Of a stretch of DNA of 64,000 nucleotides, positions 6,923 through 51,122 are shown piece after piece. The notes below the pieces were generated by a model. It had not been told where the DNA came from. It ran no database searches and worked only from the letters and a program-made list of their open reading frames with translations. Source of the DNA: a virus (lineage: Duplodnaviria; Caudoviricetes). Positions within the stretch are counted from its first letter, which is position 1, and every line of letters begins with the position of its first letter. Position numbers and translations under genes: made by a program. The stretch is from the IMG/VR virus record IMGVR_UViG_3300035208_003115, one strand, 5' to 3'.

Positions 6923-7732
6923 TTAGACTGATTTTATCTGATTCATGTACTTAGTTATATTCCCTAGAAGTTTGGTTCCCGGGGGAGACCAGATTAGGGT
7001 GGGAATTGGCGTTACCGCCGTAGAAGGTATCTGGAACATAAGCATTGGGTTCAAGTGCCAGGCTCCCATTACCCTGACATCCTGTATTTGTGAGGTTATA
7101 TTAACTTTACCAGCTATAGAAACGCCATTTTGAGCACTAACTTCAACGCCATTGTTATGGTCGGCTACTAGTCTTACCTCATCTTCGCCAATATAAACGT
7201 GCGCAACCGGATCATCAATTAGGAGAGTCGGGTCATCTGTTGTGACCTTATTATCTCCAATGAACTCTCTTGGGACAGGCCGGGGTGGCTTAACTGTTAT
7301 AGACTGACCCTGAGGATGTTTCCGAAGGTTAATTCCTGCAGTTAGAGACTTAGCCTCTTTTACAATTTTACCATCAACAGGAGTGGATTTCTTTGTTCCT
7401 GATGATCCAAAAATAGCCGAAGAGATTCCATATTCTATATTCGGGACCGGGGTTGCCTTGGGTATCAGCTCTACACAAATTGGACTCTTGGGATCACCAT
7501 GAAGTAACCCAATATATGAGCCAGCGTTAATGGGATAATGGAGTCCAGGAGTTGGCTTAAGCCGAGCCTCAAACGTTTCATTGCCCTTTGTCGCTCCGGC
7601 CTGCATGCGACAAATAGCTCTCGTCTGATCGGGACTTATACTGTCAATATATACGGTCGTCCCTCTAAAGGAACGTTCCATCTCCGTGCGAGCGATATCT
7701 TGAGTTGCTTTAAGCGTAGTCTTATTTATCAT
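6923..7732 (-). CDS. Putative baseplate spike/assembly protein
   Basis: Lies between hub and gp25-like gene; beta-rich C-terminus; assignment mostly by synteny. Confidence 0.5.
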   Translation of the reverse strand: MINKTTLKATQDIARTEMERSFRGTTVYIDSISPDQTRAICRMQAGATKGNETFEARLKPTPGLHYPINAGSYIGLLHGDPKSPICVELIPKATPVPNIEYGISSAIFGSSGTKKSTPVDGKIVKEAKSLTAGINLRKHPQGQSITVKPPRPVPREFIGDNKVTTDDPTLLIDDPVAHVYIGEDEVRLVADHNNGVEVSAQNGVSIAGKVNITSQIQDVRVMGAWHLNPMLMFQIPSTAVTPIPTLIWSPPGTKLLGNITKYMNQIKSV

Positions 7733-10700
7733 AAATTCATTCCTGTAATGCTAGAATAGAACTCTTCTAGAGCTCCAGCTACTGTGTTAACGGACCCAGA
7801 GAGTCTTCTCCACTCACCGGCCATATTCTCCCATATCCCCCCGCGATGCGTAATGCCATCCAGACCAGCGTGGAAGGGCTTACCCATTAGAGAAAGTGGA
7901 GTAATCCGAAGTGGGCAGGCATAGTTGGGATCATCAATTCCTGCGAACATTTGGTAATAGGCAATAGGGCCTCCTACTGCCAAGGTTTTCATCATATTTA
8001 GGAATGATACCTTTGTAAGAGCGGCCCAGGATTCTTTATTAATTAGAACCTTGGCAGCTCCCTTCGAACCATTGGCGACCATTCCGCCTGTTACTCCAGC
8101 TGTTGCTGCAAAGTTTCCCTTGGCTATCATCCAGTCTATTTCTGCTTCAAGACTTGATCCGGGTTTGGCTCTCATAATATTTTTGAGGGCGGCATTAACT
8201 TCCATCCCATTAGCCTCTGTTAGCTTAGATATCTGAGGGATAGATGCGTCCTTGAGGGAACGCGCTTTGTTGATTTCGGTAATGATTTTATATTTTGCAT
8301 TATCTATCTTTTTATCTGCCATAAACTTGAGAGTTCTACTACTAACCGCTTCTTTGGTGGCAACATCAAAAGTCTTGGCGATTGATTTATACTTACTGCC
8401 TACGAATTTATACAGTTGGTTGCCAAGCGTCTTTCCCTTTTTAAACGCTTGGGCCGCAGCTTTATTAACAGCTTGTTTTGATAGAATAGAGGCCCCTGCT
8501 TGACCTCCTTTTGCGAGAGCCCCTGCTTGACCTATTCCTGGGACAACTAGAAGTGCCAACATAGCGACATCAAAGACCTCTTTAATAAGAGAGGCTGGAC
8601 CCATTCCTTGACTGAGGATATCCAAATAAGCGTGTGGTTCGATGATGCTGACAAATCCGTTTTCGGCTGACATGACATGCGTTACAGATTTAACCTCTAT
8701 GGGGCCGTACATCTTAGTATAATCATCGTGGATATAGATGACATCATATGGCTTAATCTCTGGATTCCCTAGGAGAACTAGGCGTCCTCCGTACATGTTT
8801 CTGACGCCTTCAGCGAGTATAGAGGTGGCATAATTTCTCGCCTGCTTGACCGTCTTAGCATTTTCAACCGGGATAGTGAGTTCGCGAGTAACCCTATCGT
8901 CTAGGGTTTCCCCTGCCTGTATTTGGAACTCATTATTCAGTTTATCTCCGAAGATAAGTTGAGGAAGGAATGGAGTATAGTAGTCCATAAAGTCATGGCG
9001 CTTATACTTAACCTTGACCTGATTCCACATTCCTGTAAAGTTAGAACAAATCTTGTTATCAACGATATGCTCGTATCCGGAGGCAATATGGTAGTTTCTA
9101 AATCTCTTTTCAATGGGGCTATGACCGAATTCAGCTAGAACCTTCTGAAATTCCCCGCTGATATCAACGAGATTCTGTAATAAAATATTCCTAAAGACGG
9201 TGTGTGTCTTGAGGTCTGTCCTAAAGATGGGTCCAGAGAAAGAGATGCTACCATTATCTAGTTTCTTAATGGTGATTTCTCCTACCCGGTGATTAACATA
9301 AAAGTTAAACGGAATATGACCCTCGAAGCTAATCGAGTTTTTATTCTTTGTCTCGTCAGTAATCTGATTTAAATCCATCGGATTTCGACTAGATGTCGAG
9401 GTTGTTTTCTTGTCTCCTCCCGGAAGAAAGGTTCCCAATAGGAGTTGCCATATACTCGATAATTTGAACCAGCAGATAACAGCTAGAGGAGATTCAATTC
9501 CATACTTTTTGTATATCTTCTTCATTGGGCCGAGAAGACTTTTATCAAAGTCGGCCTGGTCCCCGATGAAAGGGATGTCCGTGGCTAGATTCTTTAGTTC
9601 TTCTTTAACTTTTTTCTCATCTAGAATTAGGTCATACCTAGATAGAACGCCTTGAAGATTATCAAATAGGGCGACGTCCTTTTGGTCTATCCCCGTTGTC
9701 TGAATTTTCGCCCGAGATAGAGTGGCGTATACAGTTTGAACGTCAGTATCTCTATAGAAATCAAGGAGAGGGATAGTTCTTCCGCTAAGAGATTTAAGAA
9801 TTGAGCTACGAACAACTGGGTCGAGGTGATCTAGCATCTCTGATTTTAGTGGATCCGATGGCTGACTCTTAATAAGCTCTTTAGCTAAGCGTGCAATTTC
9901 TGCTTCGTATGGGTCGGTTTCTTTCTTGGCATAGATGGGGCCAGGACTTTCTTCTTTAGAATTAAGGCCGAAGTCGCGAGTGTCTGATTTTCTCTCGCTC
10001 TTTTGAGGTTCTTCTGTTCCTAGCTGGAACTGGATATTGCCAGTTGAACCATCTGAACCGATTGTGTTTAGGACATCAACAACTTTACAGTAGTCCATTA
10101 GCAGGCTCATGGTTCTGCCTTTGGCTCCCTCGGCGTGGTTCGCACGCCATTTAGCGAAGGCTTGATCAATCCGATCTTTGACCTTCATCCACTGGAGATA
10201 ATTAAACTCGGGTTTTTTGGCCTCTGGAGTTGCATCGTTGGCCATTTCCTCTTGAAACTTTTCTCTAACACTTTTGTTTGAATTCGGAGCTTTCTTATTG
10301 AGGCTTCTCCAACCTCCTCCTAAATCTGGAATTAGGTCGAGAGACAACTTCATATATTGTCTTGTGACTCCCAGATCCTGGGTATATTTATACCAGTCAT
10401 CTGGACGGCCAAAGAAGACCGTTTCTCTGTCATCATACGGGACAACCTGGCAGATATAGCCGGGGTGAGCAGCCGCGATATCTTGAAGAGCATCCCACTT
10501 GGTCATGTTGTCAGCGTTATATGACTGTAGTAATCTCCATGTCCCGGGCTCTAATTCCTGATCGATATAAATGTTATCGTCAAAGGCTGGACCATCTATA
10601 AAGTCGGTGACCGTAGATGGAAGAATAGAGGCCTGGACAAGTCTGCCCAGATGTTTGACCTTAGAGTCTAGAAGCATCCACCAAATGAATGCTTTAGGAG

Positions 10701-13700
10701 GGCAAATCCAGCCCAAGAAAGAACCAACGTTGGCCTCAGTAAATAATTCTGCGCCGTACGACTGGCAGATTATCTCGAATTTCTCGCCTCCGCCTACATC
10801 AGTAACAAAACCATTGAAGATAGTGGGCATGTCAGCGGGGTTCGCTTCATACCCCATCTTGATTTGAATCTGAGTTCCGGGCTGTAAGAAGAGAGATTTA
10901 ATAGCCTTGTTAGTAAACGGGCTAGTTATTCTATCTTCACTGTTTCTTCTATCTGCAGCATGACTTTCTTTTGCAAACCTGGCCTGTAGATCCGTCAATG
11001 CTCCATCGTGGTTATTCAGGGATAGATGGACGACTGCTGACGGAGAAGCTTTTTCTTTATAGAACCGAATCGACTCGCATGACCTATAGTCGTAGAAGTT
11101 ATCAAATAGAAACCATTCCGGTGAATTCTCTTCCCGGAAGTATATCTTGTAAGTCGGATATGCCCGCGTCATGGAGAAATATTTAGGATTATTTAAGATC
11201 CCATTACGAGCCTCAGATACGATATCCGGGATGGTTTTCTCGATGTCAACATTAAAGTCTTTGAATGAGGAGCGGAACATTCTATGTTCGTACTCTGCCT
11301 CTGCGATAACAAGGGGAGACGTTTCAGAGCCAAACGCACCCATTGACTTGACGAGGCTATTAGATAAGAAGAGATCATTGAGACTTCTGAAGGTGCCAAA
11401 GTTTACGGGAGAGCTAGACTTAAGGAGTCCTTGCTTTCTTAAGGCTCTCGCCTGTTTATTGGCGGCCTCTTTCAGCTTATCAATAGACTTTTCGGCATCT
11501 GTTTTATTAATAGTTTGCTTGTTTTGATCAGAGGAGTTAGTAGCAGTCTCTTCTTCTTTTCCGATAACATGAAATTCATTGGAAACATAATTGACTGTTC
11601 TTTCAATGGCCATACATATCGAACTGGCTCCGGTCAAGCGACTTAGCGAAGAGGCGTCTGCGCTAACATTCTCCTCAATCGTTTTTGTGTCTTTGTGCGT
11701 TGAGCTACCTATAAACGGGCTATATGATCTCATATAGAATGTGGGGTCTGTCATCAGAACCGGAGACTTTAGCGAACCGTTTGGGTTGCGTAGTAAGTTG
11801 CCGTCATTATCTTCAAGCTGATATGCGAATGGAATACCCAAATCTGTGTAACAGGAAATATATACAGATCCGTCTATGATATCCTGGGGAAGATAGTCCC
11901 CAGTAAATGAAGATCCCTTGTTTGTGATTCCGTATTGAAGAAGTGTTTCTCCACTATAATAATAGTCTCTATATTCCTCGCGGAGTTTGGCCGCCATATT
12001 CTTATCATATCTTTTAATCATGACGTGATTTACTTCTTTAGCTGCCAGAACTGGGTCAACAAAATCTCCACCCCATTTAAAGTATTTACGGGCTATAGCT
12101 CCAATTTGAGACCATACGGCTGACGAAATTGATGACTTCGATATTGCTACTCCATTTTGGATTACACTAAAGTCAACCCCAACTCCGAATGTATGAGATG
12201 AGTTTTCAAAGTCTACTGCGGGGGTTCCATCAGCCCGTAGTTCTTCAGTCTTATCCCGGGGCCTCCAGGCAGATATCATTTCGAGATCAATCCCCAACGA
12301 GGAATTTACTTCTTCCTTAAAACTATTGAATAGACTTAAGATGTCTGCTCGCAGAACGAAGTCGAGACCGAAACGAGAACGATATTCCGTAAAGACTTTT
12401 CCTCTCGCCGGGAGGACTTGTTCCCTAGAGGTTTTAATTCCCAGTAAGCCGAGCTCCCATCTTAGGAGATGAGGGCTACGAATCATCATTTCAAACCGGC
12501 GACAATCTCCATAGAGAATTGTTTGGACAGCGCCTGCCAGAAGAAAGGCTCTTCGGTTCTTATCTTTAGAGTCTTCAGTCCCTCTGTTTTGGGCATTCAG
12601 AGACTCATAATCAAAGTCTGGATTTTTCTTTGCTTGAAGCATCATGAATACAAGAAACTTGGCCCATAGAGGGTGCGAGGTGAGGGCAGACTGTCCTGTC
12701 ATCATCTTCCATATTTGGTTGTAGGCCTTACGACGACTAAAGTTAACGGTATCGACTCTCTTCCCATAGCCAGAAGCAATATCCCCTGCGCTCATATTCC
12801 CCTGATTGGGACGGTTAGGGTCAACGACCATGGGGGCATTTGGATTATCTTTCCCAATATATTCTCCGAAAAGAGTATCAATGCGGAGATCTGGCATCCC
12901 GGCAGCCGTATCATAGAGTGTTTTAGCTGCGGCTATTGCGATGGTCCCATGCAACAGGGCAAGCTTCTCTAGTGTACTTGCTGCACTTATAGCTTTCTGA
13001 ATCTCCCATTTCTCCCCTTCTTTTAGCCATCTAATAAAAGCATTTCTTACTAGACGAACCATGCTTGGAATTAGAATTGTTTCAGTGTACGATGGATTAA
13101 TCTCGTCGAATGTAAACCGAACATCCTCATCTGTTTTCTGAGAACGATTATAGTCCCAGCGAGGGCCATAGAACTCAAGGATTCTAGTTAGTAGTTTCTT
13201 TTTGAAGGCCCTCTTATCTGTGAACCTAGAGTCGAGAGACTTGACAACCTCTGTTTGTTCGTGAAAGGTCCAGCTAACAATGAAAGTTCCTGGGTTTTCT
13301 GGGACACTCTGTATATCCATCGTTCCGTTAACGACAGTAAATATACCGTTTAGGTTGACGACATCGTTGCTTACATAGGTAAGGTTCGACCCAGCATGTC
13401 TCATTTTGCTACGGGCGTCGGTCTCGATTGACTTATCGACTGCCGCTAGCTGTTTTACAATGGCTTCGTTTGAAGTAACGATAGACAACATAATGTCGGA
13501 TGATCCACCCCCGAGATATTGAGCGGTAGGAACCGGGGCAGATATTATTGGGAGGATAGAGGCGGGGTATTGTCTTCTGATAGTGATCCCATCGATGGTT
13601 GTAGTATTGTTGTCCGCGATACTGTACAGTTTTATATATCTGTTCCCGACGTTCATTACAGGAAGATCATATAGGTCATCAATATTCTTAAGGATGATAT

Positions 13701-14655
13701 TATTTAAATCACTCGCCGAGATGGTGTTGGCTATCTCTATCCCGAGATGAGCACTTAAATCTTCTTTTAAATCCTTCTGGGAACCAACCCACCTGCCACT
13801 GCGTCGGCTCTTGTATGCTCCAATAGAAAGATCAAATGCTTCCATAATTGTAGTTACATGATATCCAATATGGAATGATTCTGTTGCATTGGCGGATCCC
13901 CAATCATTCCCGACCGGTTTAACGGCGTCGCCATTTCTTAAAACGCTCGAAGCTGGATCGTTTCGGCTTATGAAATCATCATTTTTAGTAGCGGGCTCAG
14001 AGGCCCTAGCTGCGTCAGTTCGAGTTCCATCATCCTCTAGCTCGCCCGCAAACATAAAGCCGGCATCGACTGACTTAATTAATCCATCCGTATACTGTCT
14101 CCACAGGTTACTGTGTTCGATAGAACTAACGGGGATATCATAGACGGGTTCGCCCTTGCCGTTTAGGCCTTGCCGATAGAACTGCCACTCTTCTACGAGT
14201 GGCTTAGAGTTATACACGGTAAAGGCAATGCGAAGAGTGACCGTATCAGGGAGAGAAGGTTCAGTATTAAGAGTGTAGCCGTTGACGAGAATCGGGATAT
14301 CTTTGTGTTGGACGTCTACGATTCCTGTGTTGTGCTCTACAATCCCATAAACAGTTTCGTTCCACATCGTAATAAATGGGGTTCTACGTAACATTGCTAG
14401 GATTTTTGCTAGCTTGCCATTTATTTGGCCAACACCAGAGAAGACGAGGTCCATATCAAATTGCCACATTCCTCGGCCCGTTTTGAGATAGTTGGCCCCG
14501 CGTTGGCGCATCGTCATCATATGGTCACTAAACTTAGGATTGTTGTAGTGAATATTAATTGGCGGGACATGTAGCCATACATGACCAATCCTAGTTGCGC
14601 CCGGAAGGTCTTTAGCATCAAATGTAAAGTTGGTTTGTTCTTTGGACGAAGCCAT
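7729..14655 (-). CDS. Giant baseplate hub/tail-tip protein with embedded M15 zinc peptidase (virion peptidoglycan hydrolase)
   Basis: SAWR...SSHTFGVGVDF...WGGDF...EVNHV (H821, D828, H877); gpD/gp27-type hub signature LLGNPEIKPYDVIYI...VKSVTHVMSAENGFVSII; IKMGY...IFNGFVTDV. Confidence 0.8.
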   Translation of the reverse strand: MASSKEQTNFTFDAKDLPGATRIGHVWLHVPPINIHYNNPKFSDHMMTMRQRGANYLKTGRGMWQFDMDLVFSGVGQINGKLAKILAMLRRTPFITMWNETVYGIVEHNTGIVDVQHKDIPILVNGYTLNTEPSLPDTVTLRIAFTVYNSKPLVEEWQFYRQGLNGKGEPVYDIPVSSIEHSNLWRQYTDGLIKSVDAGFMFAGELEDDGTRTDAARASEPATKNDDFISRNDPASSVLRNGDAVKPVGNDWGSANATESFHIGYHVTTIMEAFDLSIGAYKSRRSGRWVGSQKDLKEDLSAHLGIEIANTISASDLNNIILKNIDDLYDLPVMNVGNRYIKLYSIADNNTTTIDGITIRRQYPASILPIISAPVPTAQYLGGGSSDIMLSIVTSNEAIVKQLAAVDKSIETDARSKMRHAGSNLTYVSNDVVNLNGIFTVVNGTMDIQSVPENPGTFIVSWTFHEQTEVVKSLDSRFTDKRAFKKKLLTRILEFYGPRWDYNRSQKTDEDVRFTFDEINPSYTETILIPSMVRLVRNAFIRWLKEGEKWEIQKAISAASTLEKLALLHGTIAIAAAKTLYDTAAGMPDLRIDTLFGEYIGKDNPNAPMVVDPNRPNQGNMSAGDIASGYGKRVDTVNFSRRKAYNQIWKMMTGQSALTSHPLWAKFLVFMMLQAKKNPDFDYESLNAQNRGTEDSKDKNRRAFLLAGAVQTILYGDCRRFEMMIRSPHLLRWELGLLGIKTSREQVLPARGKVFTEYRSRFGLDFVLRADILSLFNSFKEEVNSSLGIDLEMISAWRPRDKTEELRADGTPAVDFENSSHTFGVGVDFSVIQNGVAISKSSISSAVWSQIGAIARKYFKWGGDFVDPVLAAKEVNHVMIKRYDKNMAAKLREEYRDYYYSGETLLQYGITNKGSSFTGDYLPQDIIDGSVYISCYTDLGIPFAYQLEDNDGNLLRNPNGSLKSPVLMTDPTFYMRSYSPFIGSSTHKDTKTIEENVSADASSLSRLTGASSICMAIERTVNYVSNEFHVIGKEEETATNSSDQNKQTINKTDAEKSIDKLKEAANKQARALRKQGLLKSSSPVNFGTFRSLNDLFLSNSLVKSMGAFGSETSPLVIAEAEYEHRMFRSSFKDFNVDIEKTIPDIVSEARNGILNNPKYFSMTRAYPTYKIYFREENSPEWFLFDNFYDYRSCESIRFYKEKASPSAVVHLSLNNHDGALTDLQARFAKESHAADRRNSEDRITSPFTNKAIKSLFLQPGTQIQIKMGYEANPADMPTIFNGFVTDVGGGEKFEIICQSYGAELFTEANVGSFLGWICPPKAFIWWMLLDSKVKHLGRLVQASILPSTVTDFIDGPAFDDNIYIDQELEPGTWRLLQSYNADNMTKWDALQDIAAAHPGYICQVVPYDDRETVFFGRPDDWYKYTQDLGVTRQYMKLSLDLIPDLGGGWRSLNKKAPNSNKSVREKFQEEMANDATPEAKKPEFNYLQWMKVKDRIDQAFAKWRANHAEGAKGRTMSLLMDYCKVVDVLNTIGSDGSTGNIQFQLGTEEPQKSERKSDTRDFGLNSKEESPGPIYAKKETDPYEAEIARLAKELIKSQPSDPLKSEMLDHLDPVVRSSILKSLSGRTIPLLDFYRDTDVQTVYATLSRAKIQTTGIDQKDVALFDNLQGVLSRYDLILDEKKVKEELKNLATDIPFIGDQADFDKSLLGPMKKIYKKYGIESPLAVICWFKLSSIWQLLLGTFLPGGDKKTTSTSSRNPMDLNQITDETKNKNSISFEGHIPFNFYVNHRVGEITIKKLDNGSISFSGPIFRTDLKTHTVFRNILLQNLVDISGEFQKVLAEFGHSPIEKRFRNYHIASGYEHIVDNKICSNFTGMWNQVKVKYKRHDFMDYYTPFLPQLIFGDKLNNEFQIQAGETLDDRVTRELTIPVENAKTVKQARNYATSILAEGVRNMYGGRLVLLGNPEIKPYDVIYIHDDYTKMYGPIEVKSVTHVMSAENGFVSIIEPHAYLDILSQGMGPASLIKEVFDVAMLALLVVPGIGQAGALAKGGQAGASILSKQAVNKAAAQAFKKGKTLGNQLYKFVGSKYKSIAKTFDVATKEAVSSRTLKFMADKKIDNAKYKIITEINKARSLKDASIPQISKLTEANGMEVNAALKNIMRAKPGSSLEAEIDWMIAKGNFAATAGVTGGMVANGSKGAAKVLINKESWAALTKVSFLNMMKTLAVGGPIAYYQMFAGIDDPNYACPLRITPLSLMGKPFHAGLDGITHRGGIWENMAGEWRRLSGSVNTVAGALEEFYSSITGMNL

Positions 14656-17600
14656 TATGTACCTAGTCTGAGTTGACGGTGATATTCATCTCGGAATATC
14701 TTAGCATAATTTTGTTCACTTGAGTCATCACGGATGTTAATGCTGGCTTTGGCGGGACGCTTGTATTTGCTGGACAGGGCGTCAGCTAGATCTACGAACT
14801 TGCTATTATGTTCACGCTGTGCCTCTTTTATTTTAACACGAACATCGTATGATTTTTCGGGCATTAATCTGACAGATCGTTGGCTTCTAGCTGCTACAAC
14901 TGGATCGGGCTCATTTGTCTTAACATACCTGCCACTATCGTCCTTTTGTTCCCCTGAACGCTGCGCATTGCTGACAACCGTTATATTGCCTGGTTTGCGC
15001 ATAGACATTCCTACCCCAGCTAGAACTGCTCCTCCAATAGCCAAAGAGGTCCATCCTCTTCCCTGTCTAAGACCAGATACGTAACTTCCTACTGCCTCTC
15101 GAACAGCTCCTCCAATCTCTTGACCCGTAGATTTAGCAGCGTCTGCATAGGTTCGATTCTGTGCAGACTGTCTGGCTGCTGATTCAAATACTCCAGCCTT
15201 ATGGAATGCTCCTTCTACACTGCCTTGGGGGAACGATGTTTCCCCGGGGAGAAATGCTTCGAAGAGTTGAGCAATAGAGGCAGGGCCTCCTACCGATGTT
15301 GTCTTCTGCATTGCCGCGGTTATGCTATTTTGACCAGCCGTAAGGGATTCTAGAATATCTCTGGCAATAACGCTCTTTCTAGCGTTGGGGCCAAACATTT
15401 TCATATGGTCCGGGGTTAGAAGATCCATAAGCTTCATGGCCTTCTTTGTTGGATCGGACCCATATAGTATCTCGGACATATTTACAAACTGAGCGGAACC
15501 TTGAAGATTTCTTTTGGCATTAATCTGTTCTTCGGCTAAGCCAAAAAGAACATTGCTTAGATTGGTGGAATATTCCTGAGTAAACTTGCCCCTCAATATA
15601 TTCGAGGGATCAGTTCCCTTCATCATAGCGCCGGCAAATACCTTGAAAGCGGCGTTATGGGTTACACCAGTATTCCGGCCCTTGAGAATATTCGTCATTG
15701 CTACTTCAAAAGGAGTTTTGCTCTCAACTGCAGCTAAGTTAATTGGAGTGTCAGTTCGTATTAGCTTTTGAATAGCGGCATCTTCTGCTTCCTTAAATGC
15801 CGACTGCTTACGGTACCATGTTTCTTTTAACTCCTGCTGTACGTCCGCTCTCCCCATAAATTCAGACACAGTATTTCTTGGGTCAGCATCGAGATCTCCA
15901 TGGATTATAGATCCAGATCCCTGAGATAGAAGTTCATCGATCTTCTTCCCATAGTGACCCGCTGCAGTTATTTCGGGATTCATCAGCCACATACGAGACG
16001 AAGTCCATCCTGCTGGGGCTCCTGGTGGACGCATCTGAGTGCTATAAAAGCCGCCAGATTGCTCTAGTGTCTTTTTTACAAAGCCAAGGTTTCTTTTACC
16101 AGTTGCCTGATGCATTATCTGCTTGGCTTTTTTAAGTGAAACGACATGGAAGCCGCCCAAATCACCTTTGAAAGTCGGATCTACGGCTGAGATTTGTCTG
16201 CGGATAATAGCTTCCTGTTCGGCATTCAAGAAGCCCATCGTAGTACGAGTTCCCTTAAGACGGGTCTTAAGGACCATGTTTTCCATAAGCTTGTTTTTGC
16301 CAGATAAACCCGCAAACTCATTAAGATATCTCTGGCCCGCTAACTGGATTGCAGTTCTATCTCCAGATGCGGTAGCTTTAATAACACCAAGTTTGGCCTT
16401 ATTTACTTCACTGGCCCATGTTTTCCCTCCCGGTGTGGCATACATCGCGGATAGGTCTTGGCTAAGAAGCGGAAGCTGGGAATAGCTTCTGGTGACTCCT
16501 TCTCCAAGTGTAAAGTCAAAAGTAGATCCAAGAGGAAGCATCCATGTTTTATTACGGCCACCTTGAACTCCACTTGAAAGTCCCATTTTAGTAAGAGCGG
16601 TAGATAGTTGTTTGTCAAGCTCCGGATCGAAGAGGATATTGCCTGAGTGACCCTGAAAGGCCCCACCACTTATGGTTATATTTTTAGCAATGGCTGCCTG
16701 GAGATCCGAAGTTAAAGTTTCTGCTCCAGGAACCGGAGTTTTGCTTTGAAGATATTTGAGGATATTTCTAAACTCTTGACCCTCGGATGTAGACGCAATT
16801 TTCTCGGCTATGAGGCGTTCTTGAACTGTCATGCCGGCTTGCTTGAGTCCCATTAAATCTTGAACTCCAGCCTTAATGAATGGACCTTCTTTATTTAGAT
16901 TTGTTTGATCGAGGGCCTGGACATATACCGGGTGAGCTACCCCCTTAAGATTAACTCCCTCTAGAAGAGCAGTAACAGTCGCCCCATACTGGGACGGAAG
17001 AAGACCGGCGGCCCTGCGAACATGGCCAGCTTTGATTCCGAAGTTATCTGGGAATAGAAGTGTTCCATTAAGAGCTCTGACCATGGAGTCGGAACCCATT
17101 GCTCTATTCTCTCGGTTAAGAGCATTGGCAAGTCTTTGGGCATTTACTAGACGTTTCTTGGGAGAGACAAATTGCGGATCTGTTAAATAGATTTCCGCGG
17201 CCTGATAGAGCGGAACCATCGTTCGAGCTTCAGAGCCTTTAGCCAGAGGAGCTAGAACAATATCGGTAGTAGCCGCTGTTCCCTTAAATGCCGAAGGAGA
17301 GTGAGCCGCCAATCCTTTTCTTAATTCAATAGATAGTTTCGCACCAACACCTAGTGCTTCTCTTTCCCCATAGTTGAGTCGAAGGTTTTTCCCCTCCTTG
17401 ACTAAGGACAGGGCAATATTATCTGTTCCTGGCGCAGTCTTTCCAAGATGCCGGAGAGCTTCGCGAGGAGTATATCCCTCGGCAATAAGAGCTTTAAAGT
17501 CTGCATCTTTTTCTAGACTTGCAGAACGGATAGCATTGATAACATCGTTGTCTATGGATGCGCCATGGATAAGTTTGTCGAGAAATCCCTTAGAAACATC

Positions 17601-18500
17601 AGAAGGATTAAAGGCAATTGTTTTAGGTCTATATGAGTAATAACCAGATAAGGCATTGGGCCTAATCGCGAATGCGTCTCCGGCTAGGGCGGCAACTTGA
17701 GTTAAATCTCCGCCGGCTCCAGGAGTTGCGTACTCCGCCATTCTCACTAGACTAGTATTATATGCTCCTGCTCTAAAGTTGGAACCCGGGATACTAGATG
17801 TATACCCGGGACGGGCCCCCGTGAGCATCTCATCAACGATTCCTTCGGCGACTTCTATTCCTCTCGGAGTCCACGATGCACTAGAAGTAGTCCCGATTCC
17901 AGGGCCACTTTCCTGACCGATTGGCAGGAAGTCTAGGATGGTGGCATATTTTCGGACTTCTTCCTGGGTTCCTAGTCCCGGGTAGATTCCCATAAGATTT
18001 TTGCCACTATAAATATACTGGCCAGCTTTACTTCCTACTCCACTAGTTCCGCCACCACGAGAAATAATCTCATTGGCCCATTCCTCGTGTTGCTCCATAG
18101 ATGGGAATGGAACATTGGCCATCTTCTGGGCCCAGCTTATGTCCTCGACGCTAGACGAGAAAGCATATCTTCCTGCCCTACCTGTCAGCGAGCTAATAGA
18201 TGGCATCTTGAGGGTGAGGTCTTTTGCCTCTCTTAGGAAGCCTTTTAGGCTAGAACCCCTCTTAGAAGGGTCGGTTATGCCCGCTATCTGCCCCAAACGC
18301 CTATTAATATACTGAGGAAGGCTATATAGGCCTCCCTCATAGTAAAACTGCCTAGAAGTCCTTCTAAGGCCATTGTATATAACCGTATTATTGGGCCCCT
18401 CTATGGGGAGTCCACTATACGGATTAACCGCAAGGCCCGGATGTTCCTTGTTTAGATAGTCAATGACCGAGCGGTCGTATGGAGAATATTTAGGAGACAT
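14655..18500 (-). CDS. Putative single-chain two-barrel (beta plus beta-prime-like) virion RNA polymerase
   Basis: Collinear RNAP-like motifs: GDAFAI (~275), GAKLSIELRKG (386-396), DIVLAPLA (413), LSGKNKLMENMVLKTRLKGTR (~732-752), RPP (824), HGDLDAD (867-873). Confidence 0.7.
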   Translation of the reverse strand: MSPKYSPYDRSVIDYLNKEHPGLAVNPYSGLPIEGPNNTVIYNGLRRTSRQFYYEGGLYSLPQYINRRLGQIAGITDPSKRGSSLKGFLREAKDLTLKMPSISSLTGRAGRYAFSSSVEDISWAQKMANVPFPSMEQHEEWANEIISRGGGTSGVGSKAGQYIYSGKNLMGIYPGLGTQEEVRKYATILDFLPIGQESGPGIGTTSSASWTPRGIEVAEGIVDEMLTGARPGYTSSIPGSNFRAGAYNTSLVRMAEYATPGAGGDLTQVAALAGDAFAIRPNALSGYYSYRPKTIAFNPSDVSKGFLDKLIHGASIDNDVINAIRSASLEKDADFKALIAEGYTPREALRHLGKTAPGTDNIALSLVKEGKNLRLNYGEREALGVGAKLSIELRKGLAAHSPSAFKGTAATTDIVLAPLAKGSEARTMVPLYQAAEIYLTDPQFVSPKKRLVNAQRLANALNRENRAMGSDSMVRALNGTLLFPDNFGIKAGHVRRAAGLLPSQYGATVTALLEGVNLKGVAHPVYVQALDQTNLNKEGPFIKAGVQDLMGLKQAGMTVQERLIAEKIASTSEGQEFRNILKYLQSKTPVPGAETLTSDLQAAIAKNITISGGAFQGHSGNILFDPELDKQLSTALTKMGLSSGVQGGRNKTWMLPLGSTFDFTLGEGVTRSYSQLPLLSQDLSAMYATPGGKTWASEVNKAKLGVIKATASGDRTAIQLAGQRYLNEFAGLSGKNKLMENMVLKTRLKGTRTTMGFLNAEQEAIIRRQISAVDPTFKGDLGGFHVVSLKKAKQIMHQATGKRNLGFVKKTLEQSGGFYSTQMRPPGAPAGWTSSRMWLMNPEITAAGHYGKKIDELLSQGSGSIIHGDLDADPRNTVSEFMGRADVQQELKETWYRKQSAFKEAEDAAIQKLIRTDTPINLAAVESKTPFEVAMTNILKGRNTGVTHNAAFKVFAGAMMKGTDPSNILRGKFTQEYSTNLSNVLFGLAEEQINAKRNLQGSAQFVNMSEILYGSDPTKKAMKLMDLLTPDHMKMFGPNARKSVIARDILESLTAGQNSITAAMQKTTSVGGPASIAQLFEAFLPGETSFPQGSVEGAFHKAGVFESAARQSAQNRTYADAAKSTGQEIGGAVREAVGSYVSGLRQGRGWTSLAIGGAVLAGVGMSMRKPGNITVVSNAQRSGEQKDDSGRYVKTNEPDPVVAARSQRSVRLMPEKSYDVRVKIKEAQREHNSKFVDLADALSSKYKRPAKASINIRDDSSEQNYAKIFRDEYHRQLRLGT

Positions 18501-21500
18501 AAGCGTTGGCTAACATGCCCTTTAAGTTGGCCCGGATATAATTGCGGGCTTCAGTATCTGTCGAGTATTTAATGTCGAAATCAAGTTCTATTCCTGGGGT
18601 TCCAGCGGCTTCGTCAATATATAGCTCATAGTTATTGTATCCTTGCGCACCAATAATATCACTTATTTCCTGCTTGATAAGCTGAGGATTGCCCTTGGTG
18701 CTAAATGGGTCAATTAGGGGCACATATGGTTTCCGCTTTAAGGCTTCTCCCTGTGTCTGCCACATATTGAAATCGTGCTGATCAAATCCTTCTTGGGTAA
18801 CGGTTTTATACTGAACATCTGAAAGGTTGACCGCAGGGTGCCAGCCTATCCACGATTCTCCCGGAAGATAATGATCCTGAAAATACTTCTCTAAGTTAGG
18901 GTTGGGGTCTACATCTTCTCCCCATTTGGCTTGTAGGAATCGTCTCATCCCCAGTGGGACCTTGGAAGCTATCTCATTTCGCTCTTCTGCTGGTGCCGTC
19001 ATGAATGCATTAAAGAACTCACGCTGCTTTGTTGGAAGGGCTCTCATGATAGAGGCGAAGTCACCGTGAACATCGGCTCCGTACATCGTAGACTTATACT
19101 TTTCTCTAAAGCGAAGGGCGGCTCTAGCGAAACGAGTCGAGCTCTCGATGGCAGATTCAGCGGCATCCTCGGTCCACTTTTGCCGACTTAGAACTTGAAG
19201 AGCAGCAGAGAGTCCCCTCTTTTCTTCTCTAATCTTTTTACGGTTTTCAGGATCTTCTTCCTGAAGTTGAGCCAGGCTCTGTTCACCATACTTTTGAGTT
19301 ATGGCTTCTTTAACTTCTTTGCGAGCGCGACGAGATGCCTCAAGAGTTTGAATAACCTTGGCCGGGTCAATCCCTTCTTTTTCAATAGCAAGATCCCTGG
19401 AATAAGTGTAGAGCCTGCGATATTTTAGATACTCGAGCATGTCATAGTACTGGTCGATATCCCATTGCCGTTTGCGATATTCGGGTATGGCCGCTCCCCA
19501 GTTACCTGCACCAGCCATGGCTCCACCAACTAAGCCCGCCGCTCCGAGAACTGTCTTGGCTACCTTTGAAGAGCCGAAGAGAGTAGCAACGAATCCTCCA
19601 ACAAGACCAGCTCCGACCGGGCCCATTCCTGCTATTTTGTGACCAATTGGCATAATAAAGTCACGGTATGGATGAGACCAGTCGGCTGAATCACGGCCAT
19701 ATAGTTGTGTTCTTTCCCACGACTCTAATGCACTCCGGTTTTGTAAAAACTTAGTATGTAGAGGAGTGTCAGCGTGGGAGAAGGTTTCCCATAAAGAACC
19801 AACAGCTCTTTCGAGCGGGTCATATTTAACCTTGTGATTTAGCGGAGAGTATACTTCTCCTGGCCCGGTTCTTTTGAACTCTCCCATCTTTTTCTTAATT
19901 AGGCTCTGATTAAGATCTCCGATAACGACAGGAACAGTGGGCAAGACAGTTGATGTCTTGGTGCGATATCTTGGGTCATCAAGAACCTGGATGCTGAGGC
20001 TCTTACCCCTTTCTAGATAGCTTTCTAGATATGACTCTCCCTTCCCTGTTATTCCTTTAACTCCAGCGAGGTCATATATCGTCCCCTTATCGCCCTCAAC
20101 GGTAAAGCGACCCGCACCGAGATACTTTTCTACTGTAATTCTTTCTGAAGCTGTGTCCCCCGTAGTGAATGTTCGAGGCTTGAAGGAGTAACGCTTCTTC
20201 ATTTGCGTTACTTCTTTCTTTAGATATTTCCTCTCTGCATCTGCTTCCGGAGTAAGCATTCCGGCCTTGGACATAGCCATGATATACTGTTGGCTAAATC
20301 TATATTGGCGACTATATGGGGCTACTCCACCGAGAATACGATATGTATCCATCATTGAGTAGTCTTCGTATTTACCTGCAGTAGCTCCAAGGTTTGCCAT
20401 TCCTAGTTGTCTGGCAGCCTCAGTGATTCCCTCTCCTGGCTTATAGAATTTTTCATAACCTGAACCAGGAAGACGGATTTCTCCTAGTTCAACCTTGGAA
20501 TACGGGTCTCCTTGGTGGAAATTGGTAAAGTAATCGCTCCCAGGCATCCACGCAGGCATTGTATTGGGGATGGGATTAACCAGTTCTATTTGACGTCTAC
20601 GGTGAGGAATGAAACGCCGGAATAGTTCTGTCGTTCCAAATGGATCTCCAATATTAAGATCCCAGTAAGCTCTTTCTGCTCCCGCGATACGGTTTGCTGA
20701 TTCTAGTTGGGGCTGTGTGAAAAAGTCTTGGTTGCCAGAAAGGCGAGAGTTCGCAGAGTTGACCATGAATCCATAGATACCGAGATATTCGGTTCCCCTA
20801 TAGATTTGTTCACCGACCCTTCCTTTAATCGAGTCAGGAGCAATGGCGGCATCAGGAGGTAGCCCGCCAAGCCCAGCCGCGACACCATACGGTAACTGCT
20901 GCTCTGTTTCACCGGGGATATACTCTCCATTATATTTCTGAGGAAAGACAAAATCGTTATAGCCTCCGCCGGATCCAACTCCGGTTCCGCCTGGACCAGG
21001 TCCAATTCCTCCACCTGGAGTGATACCTCCAGGTCCGGGACCACCAACTCCATAGTATCCTGGTCGGCCGCCAGATCCATAAAGATATTCCGAGTGCATC
21101 ATCATTGGTGGAGCTAGAAGTCCCCCAATCATTGGCCCCAAGAAGGGGAGGTCCTGTGCTCCAGATGTAACTATGGGGTAGGGTCTATCTTCATAGTGCT
21201 TGATTGCATAGTGGTAAGGGTCAGCATAATTAGACCAGTATTCAAACTCTGATCCATATTGGACATCGGTAAACTCTGCGTGAGCCTTGTGTTTTTTATA
21301 CCAATTAGGAGCGAAGTATTTGGGCTTCGTTCCTTCAAAGGGTGTTCCTCCAAACATCCACCAACGACCTGACCGAACCGGGACTCTCTTGTGTCCAAAG
21401 TATTCATCATAGTAGTCGCTTCCCTCCATTGTGAGGGCTCGAGTTGATGCTCCTCCTAGGAAAGCAGAAGCGGCTAATCCCGAGAAGAACCCAGTCTTTC

Positions 21501-23475
21501 CTCCATACGCTCCCGCAACAAGAGGAATCCCCATTCCGCGAATTAGAGACATACCAGAAGACGACGTAATTCCCGGCATTAGTTCTTCCAGGTATTTGGC
21601 CATATCCGTAATGCCGAGGGTATCTCTTAAATAAGCACTCCCCATATTAAATCCGGTGGCAGTATCAGCTAGGAGGTCACTGGGACCATATCCAAAAACT
21701 CCTCTAGTTAAATCATTCCCCGCAGAGACCAACTGATAGGAGGCATATAGGGGGAGGAATCTTTTGAAGAACATCTTCCAGACAACATCTGCAGCAGAAT
21801 GTGTGGTTGCTGGATTAAAGTTGCCAAGACCAATGTCTTCCATAAGACGGGTCGGACGATTGAATAACCAAAAGGCAGTAGAGCCTGGCATGTCATGCTG
21901 CGGGACAAAAGCAAATGCTGTTTTAGACTGGAACTGTTCACCGCTTTTCTTTTTAAAGTTCTTAGATACAGCAGTAAAGACATCTTTGCCAGATGTAGAA
22001 GGCTTAAGTTCTTCGAACTCAGCCGTTCCGAGAGTTGCCTTATACATTGATTTAATGGCAGATAGAAGACCTCCCTTACCCTTGCGGTTGATGATCGGAT
22101 GGGCGGCTTTTTCCCACCGAGAGGGATTTTCTGCAAAACCTGTTTTATGGAGAAACGGAATATCCATTTCGAGGGCGTTTAGTGTCTTCTGCCACCATTT
22201 ATCATTCGGGGCATTGAACTTATATCCTCCCGTGTATTGGCGTTTGCGCGCTGTCTCTCCAAATACAGTTTCGTGATATATCGGATTAGTTCCCTTTATT
22301 CTCTTGCCCCTTATGTCTTTGGGGAATTCATAGCTCCCGGCCTCGATAAGGGAACCCTTGCCAATCTGTTTCCCGCTTGCAATATCAAATAACTTGCCTC
22401 CAACAAATGCCGCTCCTTCTTTCCCAGCAGTTACTCCTGGGCCGATAGGTGCTCCGGCATTGAACTTGTGGAACTGAGTTCCTTGTTCTAGGGCTCCAAT
22501 CCATTCGTCGGGCCTGAATAGTTTTATTGGGTTGTAATTAAAAATGGGGAGGTGAAAGTTATTCGTGAAACCGAGTATAGTATTAGATACCAGTTTCTTG
22601 GGTGTATAGGCATTAAGATTTAGAATTCTGTTGGATACAGTGTCGAACATTACTCCCTTACCGAGACCCACGGAGGAGAAGTCTACACCTGCATTCCTAA
22701 CTGCGGTTAGGCTGTCGATTGGACGACCGAGTCTAATCGCATCGGCGATAGTAGCTGAGCGGAGCCCATTCACCACTTCGAGATTAGTAATCCCATGTTT
22801 CTTGAATAGAGTATTAACGGCCTGTTCGGTTGCCGTTCCCTTTAGGTCTACGTTACTAATCTCTTTTTGGATCCGGGAGATCATCCCTAAGTGACTTTGA
22901 ACGGGATACTTGGCGGGCGCATTACTAAAAACATTTTGGGCTTGGTTGAGAGTCTTCTCAAACCTTGAGGCAAATCCTCCTATATTATTTAGTTGGGTTT
23001 CTTCTACCGTCTTGGTGAAAGAAGAATACCATGGCCTAAATTGTGAGTCCATTCTAGCGACAGAGCGAGCCAGATATGGAGCGAGAGCTTTCCCCCCATA
23101 GTAGAGGGAACCCAAACCCGCCGCTGATTCTAGGAGACGAGAACTGAGAGATTTCTCTTCCCCAGATACAGCTTGTCTTTTTGTTTCGAGAGAACTATAT
23201 ATCCTGGCCGTTCCATAGGCGGCTCCACCCGCAAGTGCAGCCCCCATAACACTAAGGGTGGGGTTCTTGGAACGAGCGGCAGCATACCACGTGAGCCCAA
23301 GAATACCAGCTGTGGTTGTTGCCCCAATCCCGAGCTGTTTTAGCTGACGGGACTCTGCTTCTTCTGTACTAAGTTGTTCGCCTTCGCTGAATCGATTATT
23401 ACGTAAGAATCCAGTAAGAGCACCTAGAGAAGTAGCAGCTAAACCTTGTGTAAGGAAGCTCTGTGGAATAGGCAT
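18490..23475 (-). CDS. Tape-measure-like protein with hydrophobic Gly/Ala helices and a degenerate SNase-like domain
   Basis: 1661 aa directly after the tail chaperones; several G/A-rich membrane-like helices; OB/SNase-like segment at ~19880-20146. Confidence 0.65.
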   Translation of the reverse strand: MPIPQSFLTQGLAATSLGALTGFLRNNRFSEGEQLSTEEAESRQLKQLGIGATTTAGILGLTWYAAARSKNPTLSVMGAALAGGAAYGTARIYSSLETKRQAVSGEEKSLSSRLLESAAGLGSLYYGGKALAPYLARSVARMDSQFRPWYSSFTKTVEETQLNNIGGFASRFEKTLNQAQNVFSNAPAKYPVQSHLGMISRIQKEISNVDLKGTATEQAVNTLFKKHGITNLEVVNGLRSATIADAIRLGRPIDSLTAVRNAGVDFSSVGLGKGVMFDTVSNRILNLNAYTPKKLVSNTILGFTNNFHLPIFNYNPIKLFRPDEWIGALEQGTQFHKFNAGAPIGPGVTAGKEGAAFVGGKLFDIASGKQIGKGSLIEAGSYEFPKDIRGKRIKGTNPIYHETVFGETARKRQYTGGYKFNAPNDKWWQKTLNALEMDIPFLHKTGFAENPSRWEKAAHPIINRKGKGGLLSAIKSMYKATLGTAEFEELKPSTSGKDVFTAVSKNFKKKSGEQFQSKTAFAFVPQHDMPGSTAFWLFNRPTRLMEDIGLGNFNPATTHSAADVVWKMFFKRFLPLYASYQLVSAGNDLTRGVFGYGPSDLLADTATGFNMGSAYLRDTLGITDMAKYLEELMPGITSSSGMSLIRGMGIPLVAGAYGGKTGFFSGLAASAFLGGASTRALTMEGSDYYDEYFGHKRVPVRSGRWWMFGGTPFEGTKPKYFAPNWYKKHKAHAEFTDVQYGSEFEYWSNYADPYHYAIKHYEDRPYPIVTSGAQDLPFLGPMIGGLLAPPMMMHSEYLYGSGGRPGYYGVGGPGPGGITPGGGIGPGPGGTGVGSGGGYNDFVFPQKYNGEYIPGETEQQLPYGVAAGLGGLPPDAAIAPDSIKGRVGEQIYRGTEYLGIYGFMVNSANSRLSGNQDFFTQPQLESANRIAGAERAYWDLNIGDPFGTTELFRRFIPHRRRQIELVNPIPNTMPAWMPGSDYFTNFHQGDPYSKVELGEIRLPGSGYEKFYKPGEGITEAARQLGMANLGATAGKYEDYSMMDTYRILGGVAPYSRQYRFSQQYIMAMSKAGMLTPEADAERKYLKKEVTQMKKRYSFKPRTFTTGDTASERITVEKYLGAGRFTVEGDKGTIYDLAGVKGITGKGESYLESYLERGKSLSIQVLDDPRYRTKTSTVLPTVPVVIGDLNQSLIKKKMGEFKRTGPGEVYSPLNHKVKYDPLERAVGSLWETFSHADTPLHTKFLQNRSALESWERTQLYGRDSADWSHPYRDFIMPIGHKIAGMGPVGAGLVGGFVATLFGSSKVAKTVLGAAGLVGGAMAGAGNWGAAIPEYRKRQWDIDQYYDMLEYLKYRRLYTYSRDLAIEKEGIDPAKVIQTLEASRRARKEVKEAITQKYGEQSLAQLQEEDPENRKKIREEKRGLSAALQVLSRQKWTEDAAESAIESSTRFARAALRFREKYKSTMYGADVHGDFASIMRALPTKQREFFNAFMTAPAEERNEIASKVPLGMRRFLQAKWGEDVDPNPNLEKYFQDHYLPGESWIGWHPAVNLSDVQYKTVTQEGFDQHDFNMWQTQGEALKRKPYVPLIDPFSTKGNPQLIKQEISDIIGAQGYNNYELYIDEAAGTPGIELDFDIKYSTDTEARNYIRANLKGMLANAYVS

Positions 23476-25474: not shown

Positions 25475-26130
25475 TAGATATGCCCCGCAACTATCCGACC
25501 TGATCCAGAATCAAATTTGAATGCAGTATCGAGAACCAAAAGACCCGAATCTCGGATTGGCCCGCCCCCAAGACTCGGATACATCACATCTATATCCTCC
25601 GCCACAAAGCTATGAACCGATTCTGTAAAGATATCGTTAATAGACATGGTTTGACTTTCGTCAACCAGCCTAATTCCATAGACGTTTAGCTGAGCCTGAT
25701 GTCCGTATTCATTAATAAATACACAACTAACATCAAATGGAGTCATCTGGTCGCCCAGAAGAGAGTAACCCCGCTCTCCTAAGCTCATATCTAGCTTGGC
25801 CTTATGCTGAGCAACCTGCCACAAAGCATATCTATCAAATATCGTGAAGATCATCGTGCCGGCAATAGTTCTAGGCCCCGCGGTGAATCCTCTGGGATAA
25901 GTGAATCCCAAGGCTCTTACGGGGAATCTTTCTCTGTGGATTGAATAGGTAAGGGTAGATAGATTTCCAAAAGTAGTAGGAGCCTGTCCATCAGTATGAA
26001 TAACAGCTCGCATATCACATCCCGAGAACGAGTTATTACGACGAGCATACTTCCACGAGGAGGGTTGTGGAAATAGATCGCTCTGAGCATTTCTAATGCT
26101 GTTTGCTAAATCATCAAACCATTTGGCCAT
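25474..26130 (-). CDS. Tail tube-family paralogue
   Basis: SFSGCD, YSIHRERFPVRALG, GPRTIAGTMIFTIFDR, PFDVSCVFINEYG; clearly similar to 26228..26875. Confidence 0.75.
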   Translation of the reverse strand: MAKWFDDLANSIRNAQSDLFPQPSSWKYARRNNSFSGCDMRAVIHTDGQAPTTFGNLSTLTYSIHRERFPVRALGFTYPRGFTAGPRTIAGTMIFTIFDRYALWQVAQHKAKLDMSLGERGYSLLGDQMTPFDVSCVFINEYGHQAQLNVYGIRLVDESQTMSINDIFTESVHSFVAEDIDVMYPSLGGGPIRDSGLLVLDTAFKFDSGSGRIVAGHI

Positions 26131-26152
26131 GAGTTATTCCAGGAAGAAGGAT

Positions 26153-26193
26153 GGGTTGGCGGGGCGATCCCTTTTGAGACCACCCCGTTACCC
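26153..26193 (-). terminator. Stem-loop after the major tube gene (weak terminator or mRNA stabiliser)
   Basis: CGGGGTGGTCTC-AAAA-GGGATCGCCCCG 12-bp stem; no strong U tract. Confidence 0.5.
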
Positions 26194-51121: not shown

Positions 51122-51122
51122 G

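Follow-up and report, generated by a model that had tools for sequence, protein, structure and literature searches.

A predicted homologue of two-barrel RNA polymerases in the tape-measure slot of a contractile-tailed phage

Introduction

What might a protein carrying the motifs of a multisubunit RNA polymerase be doing among the tail genes of a phage, at the place where a tape measure would be expected? The question is raised by the IMG/VR virus record IMGVR_UViG_3300035208_003115 (Duplodnaviria; Caudoviricetes), of which a stretch of 64,000 nucleotides (nt), called here the window, was analysed. On its minus strand, within the morphogenesis module, a single open frame of 1281 codons with no internal stop (P0001, hereafter the target) had been read in a preliminary description, made from the letters alone, as a single-chain RNA polymerase (RNAP) in which a beta-like part is followed by a beta'-like part, on the basis of six short motifs standing in the order expected for such a fusion. 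Two-barrel RNAPs that the virion delivers have been described in crAss-like podoviruses, in phiKZ-like jumbo phages, whose enzymes are multisubunit, and in one siphovirus with a tape-measure enzyme.

The predicted structures and the conserved residues make it highly probable that the target is a homologue of two-barrel RNAPs, and it is probably an active polymerase as well. A role as a virion-borne enzyme of early transcription is slightly favoured. The evidence for each of these steps, and the explanations that compete with them, are considered below.

Conservation of the catalytic motifs

All six motif strings are present in the translated frame under the numbering first given to them, namely GDAFAI (D275), VGAKLSIELRKG (K388, K395), TDIVLAPLA, LSGKNKLMENMVLKTRLKGTR, MRPP (R824) and HGDLDAD (D869/D871/D873, nt 15882-15896). 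The last of them holds the sole DxDxD among all frames of at least 150 amino acids (aa) in the window, and since one such motif could well occur by chance, the weight of the motif comes from its conservation, and from the fold in which it is found.

Relatives of the target were collected from several sources. Four, at 42-49% identity, came from metagenomic protein collections, seven more at 24-33%, partly fragments, from HMMER run without filters on 1.8 billion cluster representatives, and additional members from IMG/VR and JGI contigs, including the most distant one (L008, 22% identity). The resulting family alignment comprises 17 rows and 15 distinct sequences at 22-51% identity, after two candidates from the representative search (P0013 and P0014) had been dropped as repeat-rich, fibre-like false positives. 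Word-index searches with the family profile or with the C-terminal region added no members, and scans of genome contigs returned no relatives.

Which residues are kept across this family? Those that are invariant or at least 90% conserved comprise the DxDxD, R824, P826, G831, K388, K395, G386, R426, G734, K940, T944 and G945; the three Asp (D869, D871 and D873) are found in every homologue that covers the site, and G386, K388, K395 and R426 are invariant in 13 sequences. In two-barrel RNAPs, the beta-type barrel bears two invariant Lys (K979 and K987 of Rpb2), and an invariant Arg and Pro (R446 and P448 of Rpb1) stand upstream of the Asp triad. The matches that had been proposed for K388/K395, for R824 and for the DxDxD are borne out by their conservation down to 22% identity among the 15 distinct homologues, with R824/P826 placed 45 residues ahead of D869, versus 35 in Escherichia coli beta', and with a spacing of 7 between K388 and K395, versus 8 in beta. 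The first of the six motifs did not survive the comparison, as D275, offered as the equivalent of the beta 'ED' pair (FEDSILV), is replaced by Gly in nearly all homologues. The reading of the triad as a DxDAD departing from DxDGD stands for the three Asp but not for the Ala, a position that varies between A, Q, D, K, N and S, and L008 has a canonical ADIDGD. Other conserved acidic residues of the family are D120 and D548.

Taken in order, the motifs (GxK..K, DIV, R; RxP; DxDxD; K..TG) are colinear with residues 1055-1102 of E. coli beta and with residues 425-464 and 789-794 of beta'. The last one belongs to a 34-residue helix within the stretch that aligns structurally with beta', and the likeness of this helix (K940..T944-G945) to the bridge helix, as well as that of the GK...LKTRL and LPxLS blocks to beta', was judged by eye.

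Predicted fold

Structures were predicted with AlphaFold2 without templates, for residues 1-1140 with 12 sequences and for residues 1-620 with 13 sequences. The longer model is of moderate quality (predicted local distance difference test, pLDDT, 68.8; predicted template modelling score, pTM, 0.57) and is best defined between residues 650 and 900, and the model of the N-terminal half is better (pLDDT 78.9, pTM 0.74). When the latter was compared with the Protein Data Bank (PDB) by Foldseek, the top 50 matches were RNAP second-largest subunits without exception, among 77 matches below 1e-3, the best being vaccinia Rpo132 (6rid_B, E 5.7e-6), and bacterial beta and the subunits of Pol I, II, III and IV were found as well. 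An exhaustive search of 48,161 representative PDB chains with VIA-align gave nine matches at Z 9.0-10.9, each of the beta/Rpb2 type and including the phiKZ and AR9 phage RNAPs, and the tenth match fell to Z 5.0. In the ESM Atlas, PF00562 is carried by all five nearest clusters, the sixth lying at a template modelling (TM) score of 0.20; searching the same resource by features gave no usable match for the target.

The other half of the chain behaves in the corresponding manner. With the whole model, Foldseek returned beta' chains for 50 of the 50 top PDB matches (E 3e-4 to 3e-3, probability 1.0), and VIA-align placed residues 581-1103 on beta' residues ~23-1356 at Z 9.5-10.5, over 420-440 residues with a root-mean-square deviation (rmsd) of ~5 Å. 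The top 16 matches of the exhaustive VIA-align search were all RNAP largest subunits or single-chain two-barrel RNAPs: QDE-1 was aligned across both halves (Z 9.1, model residues 45-1104, 373 residues), as was P74-26 gp62 (Z 8.5, model residues 106-1102), and the plant RDR2 was also among the best (Z 9.0). The single-chain arrangement put forward in the preliminary description is thus upheld by the models, each half matching the right type of subunit, in the right order.

Are the two double-psi beta-barrels (DPBBs) that define these enzymes present? The isolated DPBB 7dww superposes on model residues 749-882 over 86 residues (rmsd 2.4, Z 7.0), and 7dvc, 7dbo and the N-domains of Cdc48/VAT do likewise; on residues 248-531, the isolated DPBBs 7dww, 7dbo and 7dvc superpose over ~80 residues at Z 4.0-4.3. 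Both barrels are thus present in the models, the conserved Lys, Lys and Arg lying within the span of the first and the R-x-P and the DxDxD, with all three Asp, within the second. A predicted structure devoid of such barrels, which the preliminary description named as grounds for refutation, was therefore not what the models gave.

The tape-measure slot and the C-terminal anchor

The target gene follows the tube and chaperone genes and precedes a gene for a gp27-type hub, and its immediate neighbours can be identified by comparison with Bacillus phage 0305phi8-36 and its relatives. The upstream 1661-aa protein resembles gp145, a virion structural protein (tblastn 1e-62, 31% identity over 62% of the query), and the downstream 2308-aa protein resembles gp147 (tblastn 1e-13; phrog_20474, 1e-52; weak match to M15 peptidases), a gp27-type hub with wall-degrading domains (PMC2147016). 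Between gp145 and gp147, phage 0305phi8-36 encodes gp146, a 2537-aa protein that mass spectrometry has found in virions and to which the role of tape measure was assigned on the basis of its length (PMC2147016); its conservation with prophage relatives is limited to the last 60 residues (Hardies et al., PMC2147016). Because its flanking genes are the gp145 and gp147 homologues, the target occupies the tape-measure slot itself, and not, as first described, a place between tape measure and hub: the upstream gene is a homologue of gp145, which is not the assigned tape measure. The three genes are closely packed, the target ATG lying 11 nt inside the 3' end of the upstream gene and its TAA stop sharing 1 nt with the ATG of the downstream one, and the genes of the whole module are arranged alike around homologues of 47% and 28% identity.

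The part of the target that follows residue 1103, with a hydrophobic helix and a domain of ~90 aa, contains the best conserved regions of the family. When family residues 1132-1281 were compared by hhalign with the aligned C-termini of slot proteins (the last 150 aa of KLEB27-3 gp034, WH1 gp095, 0305phi8-36 gp146 and MTATph1 CDS0031), a match was obtained over 117 columns with a probability of 90% and E 1.5e-6, and the part after the helix gave E 8e-5 by itself, versus E 0.26-0.89 for reversed and column-shuffled controls. This similarity to gp146 was missed by BLASTP and hmmsearch and was detected by profile-profile comparison alone; hhalign of the family against 0305phi8-36 gp146, MTATph1 CDS0027 and ME3 gp036 as single sequences found nothing. 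A resemblance of the target C-terminus to the ends of the neighbouring 1661-aa or 2308-aa proteins was also considered and was rejected, no similarity being found.

Judged by this C-terminal homology and by slot position, the polymerase-like chain is covalently joined to the sequence of a tape-measure-slot protein. From this homology to the slot proteins, the target may be expected in virions. What is tape-measure-like in the target is confined to gene position and the C-terminal 150 aa, and a canonical tape measure, long, mostly alpha-helical and extended, is not matched, residues 1-1103 being modelled as globular alpha/beta RNAP modules.

Slot proteins of cultured phages

Can the same arrangement be recognised in phages that are in culture? 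The slot proteins of Bacillus phages WH1 and KLEB27-3 and of Acinetobacter phage ME3 (Table 1) bear no polymerase annotation. Those of WH1 (gp095) and KLEB27-3 (gp034) contain NRYPTIN, aligned to the R824-x-P826 site, followed after ~38 residues by the near-canonical ADHDGD or ADYDGD and then by a K...IG..DN helix. In a search of twelve giant tail proteins with the family hidden Markov model (HMM), these three proteins ranked best, with domain E values over the catalytic stretch of 0.0024 (WH1), 0.0047 (KLEB27-3) and 0.2 (ME3); among the decoys, the lowest value was 0.13. Comparison of the family with the WH1 and KLEB27-3 pair by hhalign gave colinear matches at residues 676-997 (E 0.005) and 1130-1260 (E 0.007).

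Foldseek searches of BFVD, a library of predicted viral structures, point in part to the same proteins. First in rank is a model named 'minor tail protein', aligned over 1192 columns (E 7e-12). It is followed, at E 4e-11, by the second half of a protein of 2515 aa that is divided into 1257 and 1258 residues and corresponds by its length to WH1 gp095, and the second half of a 1603-aa ME3 protein, by its length gp036, is matched at E 2.9e-9 over 778 of 802 residues. A protein of phage MaMV-DC is matched at E 4.5e-6. The annotated RNAPs of this library, LEF-9, crAss-like RNAP proteins and giant-virus subunits, rank below these.

Two of the phages compared deserve separate mention. In Moorella phage MTATph1 (L012:12513-19869), the slot gene is apparently split by an insertion sequence, with a transposase and an IstB-like ATPase, and the conserved C-terminal domain lies apart, on an open reading frame (ORF) of its own that is 313 aa long. 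In Microcystis phage MaMV-DC, the 3560-aa ORF82L (L016:6652-17334, minus strand), located outside the tail module, shows RSPPPG followed after ~53 residues by GDFDGD at aa 2537, so that it may hold an RNAP module within a giant protein; ORF82L was considered as the source of the BFVD match and discarded, its length not fitting the fragment sizes in BFVD.

Proposed mechanism and its rivals

How could such a protein act? We lean towards a chain of events in which a single-chain two-barrel RNAP anchored in the tail is expelled with the DNA and transcribes the part that enters first, a reading that is more plausible than not, without being secure. The beta-like module (aa ~1-540) would supply the basic residues K388, K395 and R426, and the beta'-like module (aa 581-1103) would supply R824/P826, the putative Mg-binding D869/D871/D873 and the bridge-helix-like helix. 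The C-terminal anchor would fix the protein in the tail during assembly; when the sheath contracts, the protein would leave before the DNA and be held at the membrane by its hydrophobic helix, where it would transcribe the first-entering DNA in the manner proposed for P23-45 gp96 (PMC10770324). The plus-strand arm, named in the preliminary description as the part transcribed, would be one conceivable template. The wider proposition, that an unrecognised RNAP clade made up of the metagenomic family and the WH1, KLEB27-3 and ME3 proteins occupies the tape-measure slot in large phages with contractile tails, rides in the tail, is injected with the tape-measure anchor and couples genome entry to the first transcription, stands at about even chances.

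A number of observations weigh against this picture. The target has no match in Pfam, PHROGs or NCBIfam and nothing relevant among the PDB sequences, by phmmer or by profile search; tblastn against 50,697 phage records gave no match, and hhalign of the family against single E. coli sequences is not significant, with E 0.2 for beta and 0.66 for beta', the latter match falling on the LPVLPPDLRP region. HMMs of separate segments were searched against E. coli beta and beta' (2749 aa): that of the K-K-DIV-R segment found its sole match at the expected site, beta 1055-1102, with an independent E value of 0.06 that is not significant, that of the RxP-DxDxD segment found its sole match, also not significant, at the expected beta' 457-468, and most of the short ones, including the G734-K...LKT block, did not find their supposed counterparts. 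Could the motifs then be due to chance, in a protein unrelated to RNAPs? The missing significance of every sequence-method match to RNAP families is what such an explanation can call upon, but two independent models searched against four structure libraries retrieved only RNAP subunits, in the right order and with a sharp drop to unrelated folds, and we find it scarcely credible. The fold evidence itself consists of AlphaFold models built from 12-13 sequences, the whole-chain model being moderate. The hydrophobic helix is weak by hydropathy, with a Kyte-Doolittle value <1.6 over 19 residues, and is not a strong classical transmembrane helix.

The possibility that an RNAP ancestor has become a structural tail or ejection protein, which no longer polymerises and whose fold is kept as scaffold or ruler, deserves more thought. 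The target lies in the tape-measure slot, and 0305phi8-36 gp146 and the MTATph1 slot protein are without DxDxD, from which it follows that the slot does not always hold a polymerase; the acidic residue of the beta 'ED' pair is missing, and the Gly of DxDGD is replaced in most members. Two-barrel RNAPs have a fourth invariant Asp (D837 in Rpb2, D709 in QDE-1), of which no counterpart was identified in the family. The residues kept at 22-51% identity, on the other hand, are the catalytic ones (the three Asp, the R-x-P, the two Lys, the Arg and the K/T/G of the bridge helix), most others drifting, which makes loss of activity quite improbable in our estimation. A Gly in DxDxD is also wanting in the crAss-like and other active two-barrel RNAPs. 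The motif is itself written DxDxD in the study of the P23-45 enzyme (PMC10770324).

If the target does polymerise, is it packaged? It might be a non-virion enzyme encoded in the tail operon, acting late or only after its synthesis in the next round. A folded polymerase of ~125 kDa is not an obvious fit for the lumen of the tail tube, and many phages with two-barrel RNAPs have non-virion ones (PMC10770324). Against an unpackaged enzyme, translation of the target is coupled to that of the virion genes before and after it, its C-terminal domain is common to the slot proteins, among them gp146, whose presence in virions is known from mass spectrometry, and relatives at 28-48% identity keep the gene order; this alternative is, on balance, improbable.

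Packaged or not, does it make early mRNA? Between 51 and 64 kb, the sigma70-like sites that match best are all oriented leftward, ahead of small minus-strand ORFs (window 51675-55566), with 10-11 of 12 positions matched (for example TTGACA-17-TATACT and TTGACA-17-TATTAT), and such strong sites at 51.7-55.6 kb indicate that the host enzyme clearly has a part, the total number of sigma70-like sites being not above the shuffled expectation (23 versus 18.2 +/- 4.4). In Ma-LMM01, a relative of MaMV-DC, all gene classes have been assigned host-type promoters (PMC5780444), and with host-type promoters both here and there the need for a phage polymerase is not evident. A second RNAP was looked for with PF05183 and PF00940 in three related IMG/VR records, which are 15-49% complete, and none was found, a result of little weight as the PF00940 control matched nowhere. 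An active two-barrel polymerase might serve another end, pulling in the genome, priming replication or copying RNA as QDE-1 does. Host-type promoters on early-looking genes fit a role other than mRNA synthesis, QDE-1 and the plant RDR2 rank high among the structures that align over both halves, and polymerase-aided injection was raised for 0305phi8-36 by Hardies et al. (PMC2147016). But the N-terminal half is best matched by multisubunit beta/Rpb2, with no RNA-dependent RNA polymerase (RdRP) among its top matches, PolD is not among the structural matches, and P23-45 gp96, the one tail-fused enzyme to have been characterised, transcribes the pre-early genes (PMC10770324), so that a purpose of this kind appears unlikely rather than far-fetched.

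Relation to known RNA polymerases

The closest parallel to the proposed virion-borne polymerase is gp96 of Thermus phage P23-45, which like the target is a single-chain two-barrel RNAP with a DxDxD, joined to the tape-measure system (PMC10770324), near a wall-degrading peptidase protein or segment, and undetectable by ordinary sequence searches. P23-45 is, however, a siphovirus whose polymerase forms the N-terminus of a 5002-aa protein and has DFDGD, whereas the target belongs to a contractile-tailed phage, is 1281 aa long and has its polymerase ahead of the C-terminal anchor of a slot protein only. Structural similarity to gp96 (Z 5.4-5.6) is weaker than that to beta' (Z 9-10, both by VIA-align), and there is no sequence match to gp96 or gp64. 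The slot proteins gp146, gp095, gp034 and gp036 share with the target their position between gp145 and gp147 homologues and a C-terminal helix with a small domain; unlike the target, they are 1603-2537 aa long with a long extra N-terminal part, and their overall identity to it is undetectable by BLAST.

For each half, and in the same order, no structures match better than those of the multisubunit enzymes, with bacterial RNAPs and the non-virion RNAPs of phiKZ and AR9 included. The target differs from them in being one chain of ~1100 aa, versus ~2750 aa, with no alpha or omega partners, in the replacement of the Gly of NADFDGD, in that the beta 'ED' pair was not found, and in that sequence similarity is not significant. 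YonO of SPbeta, gp99 of 0305phi8-36 and QDE-1 are, like the target, single-chain two-barrel enzymes, but in contrast to YonO and the RdRPs the target has no match to PF05183, the RdRP profile, at E <=0.1, and its N-terminal half matches beta/Rpb2 over ~400 residues, including N-terminal parts; YonO-type enzymes, moreover, are not virion enzymes and have their genes outside the tail module, unlike what is proposed here. As for the crAss-like phi14:2, its gp66 is a two-barrel RNAP in a single chain that is delivered by the virion, and its DxDxD is non-canonical, as in the target, which is likewise single-chain, whereas gp66 belongs to a giant protein that a podovirus packages in its capsid. CrAss-like proteins bearing an RNAP are weak BFVD matches (E 3e-3 to 2e-2), and 6VR4 is absent among the PDB matches listed.

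In the literature searched, no paper was found that reports an RNAP for this slot or for phages WH1, KLEB27-3, ME3 or those of the Ma-LMM01 type, and the accessible part of the supplements to the P23-45 paper contains no mention of these phages. A survey of jumbo phages published in 2021 recorded RNAPs only in its group 1 and in two phages of group 3, namely 0305phi8-36 and c-st, whose enzymes are YonO-like (PMC7824862).

Feature coordinates and neighbouring genes

The coordinates of the features discussed are gathered in Table 1. The morphogenesis module runs on the minus strand in the order terminase, portal, protease, capsid, sheath, three tube-like paralogues and two small genes, and continues with the 1661-aa gene, the target, the 2308-aa gene, gp25-like and baseplate J genes, and a fibre gene. 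The three tube-like paralogues (window 24572-26875, minus strand) match phrog_9206, labelled 'major head protein', a label that looks like a propagated mis-annotation because the 0305phi8-36 record gives the family as tail tube.

Table 1. Positions of the target, its modules and motifs, its neighbours and the slot proteins of cultured phages (window positions, except where a record handle precedes the numbers).
Feature	Position	Strand	Basis or remark
Target gene (P0001), 1281 aa	14655..18500	minus	one open frame
Beta-like (Rpb2-like) module, aa ~1-540	16881..18500	minus	model m0514b3f22d6e (residues 1-620) and structure searches
Span with beta-type double-psi beta-barrel, aa 248-531, including inserts	16908..17759	minus	isolated DPBB superposition
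G386-x-K388-(6)-K395-G ... D414-I-V ... R426 block	17223..17345	minus	putative counterpart of beta GDK..RHGNKG ... DIVLNP ... PSRM
Beta'-like (Rpb1-like) module, aa 581-1103	15192..16760	minus	Foldseek, VIA-align
G734-K ... L-K-T-[RK]-L-x-G-x-R-G-T block, candidate entry to beta' barrel	16239..16301	minus	family conservation; beta' resemblance by eye
Beta'-type double-psi beta-barrel, aa 749-882	15855..16256	minus	isolated DPBB superposition
R824-x-P826-x-x-P-x-G831	16008..16031	minus	putative counterpart of beta' NRAPTLH; at least 90% conserved
Putative Mg-binding triad H867-G-D869-L-D871-A-D873	15882..15902	minus	Asp triad kept in homologues; segment HMM match beta' 457-468
Helix aa 930-963 after the barrel, bridge-helix candidate (cf. 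beta' LKTANSGYL)	15612..15713	minus	DSSP; K940/T944/G945 conserved
Hydrophobic Gly/Ala-rich helix, aa ~1150-1167, W-T-S-L-A-I-G-G-A-V-L-A-G	15000..15053	minus	family conservation
C-terminal small domain, aa ~1195-1281	14658..14918	minus	common to slot proteins of 0305phi8-36-like phages (hhalign)
Upstream 1661-aa gene, gp145 homologue	18490..23475	minus	tblastn
Downstream 2308-aa gene, gp147 homologue	7729..14655	minus	tblastn, phrog_20474
Bacillus phage WH1 gp095, 2515 aa	L015:7593-15140	minus	annotated 'virion structural protein'; RxP...DxDxD
Bacillus phage KLEB27-3 gp034, 2434 aa	L014:6004-13308	plus	annotated 'structural protein'; RxP...DxDxD
Acinetobacter phage ME3 gp036, 1603 aa	L013:11173-15984	plus	REP...GGDHDQD

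Elsewhere in the window, a TubZ/PhuZ-like tubulin (PF00091 1.4e-18, PF22453) adjoins a ClpP-family protease (PF00574 8.7e-32) at 49005-51196 on the minus strand, and a 196-aa protein with a cREC_REC domain (cyclic-phosphate processing receiver, PF20274, E 4.4e-7) is encoded at 62150-62740 on the plus strand. A 105,886-bp relative (L005, IMG/VR UViG_3300035208_003507) has a CheckV completeness of 49%, which suggests that genomes of the lineage probably reach ~200 kb (jumbo phages), and the 146,893-bp contig from which the window is taken may be incomplete.

Implications

The target defines a new family of sequences, undetected by Pfam, PHROGs and BLAST, that occurs in contractile-tailed phages and has a fusion layout of its own in the tape-measure slot. 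Its link to proteins of the cultured phages WH1, KLEB27-3 and ME3 makes it testable at the bench now. Should the proposed reading be true, jumbo phages that are now listed without an RNAP would have one, and the statement of the 2021 survey would need revision (PMC7824862), although its sample may not include these phages. The strategy of P23-45 would then be a recurrent solution and not an oddity of a thermophile siphovirus, and a compact beta-beta' fusion of ~1100 residues would add to the material available on RNAP evolution. It would also bear on how long genomes get drawn into cells.

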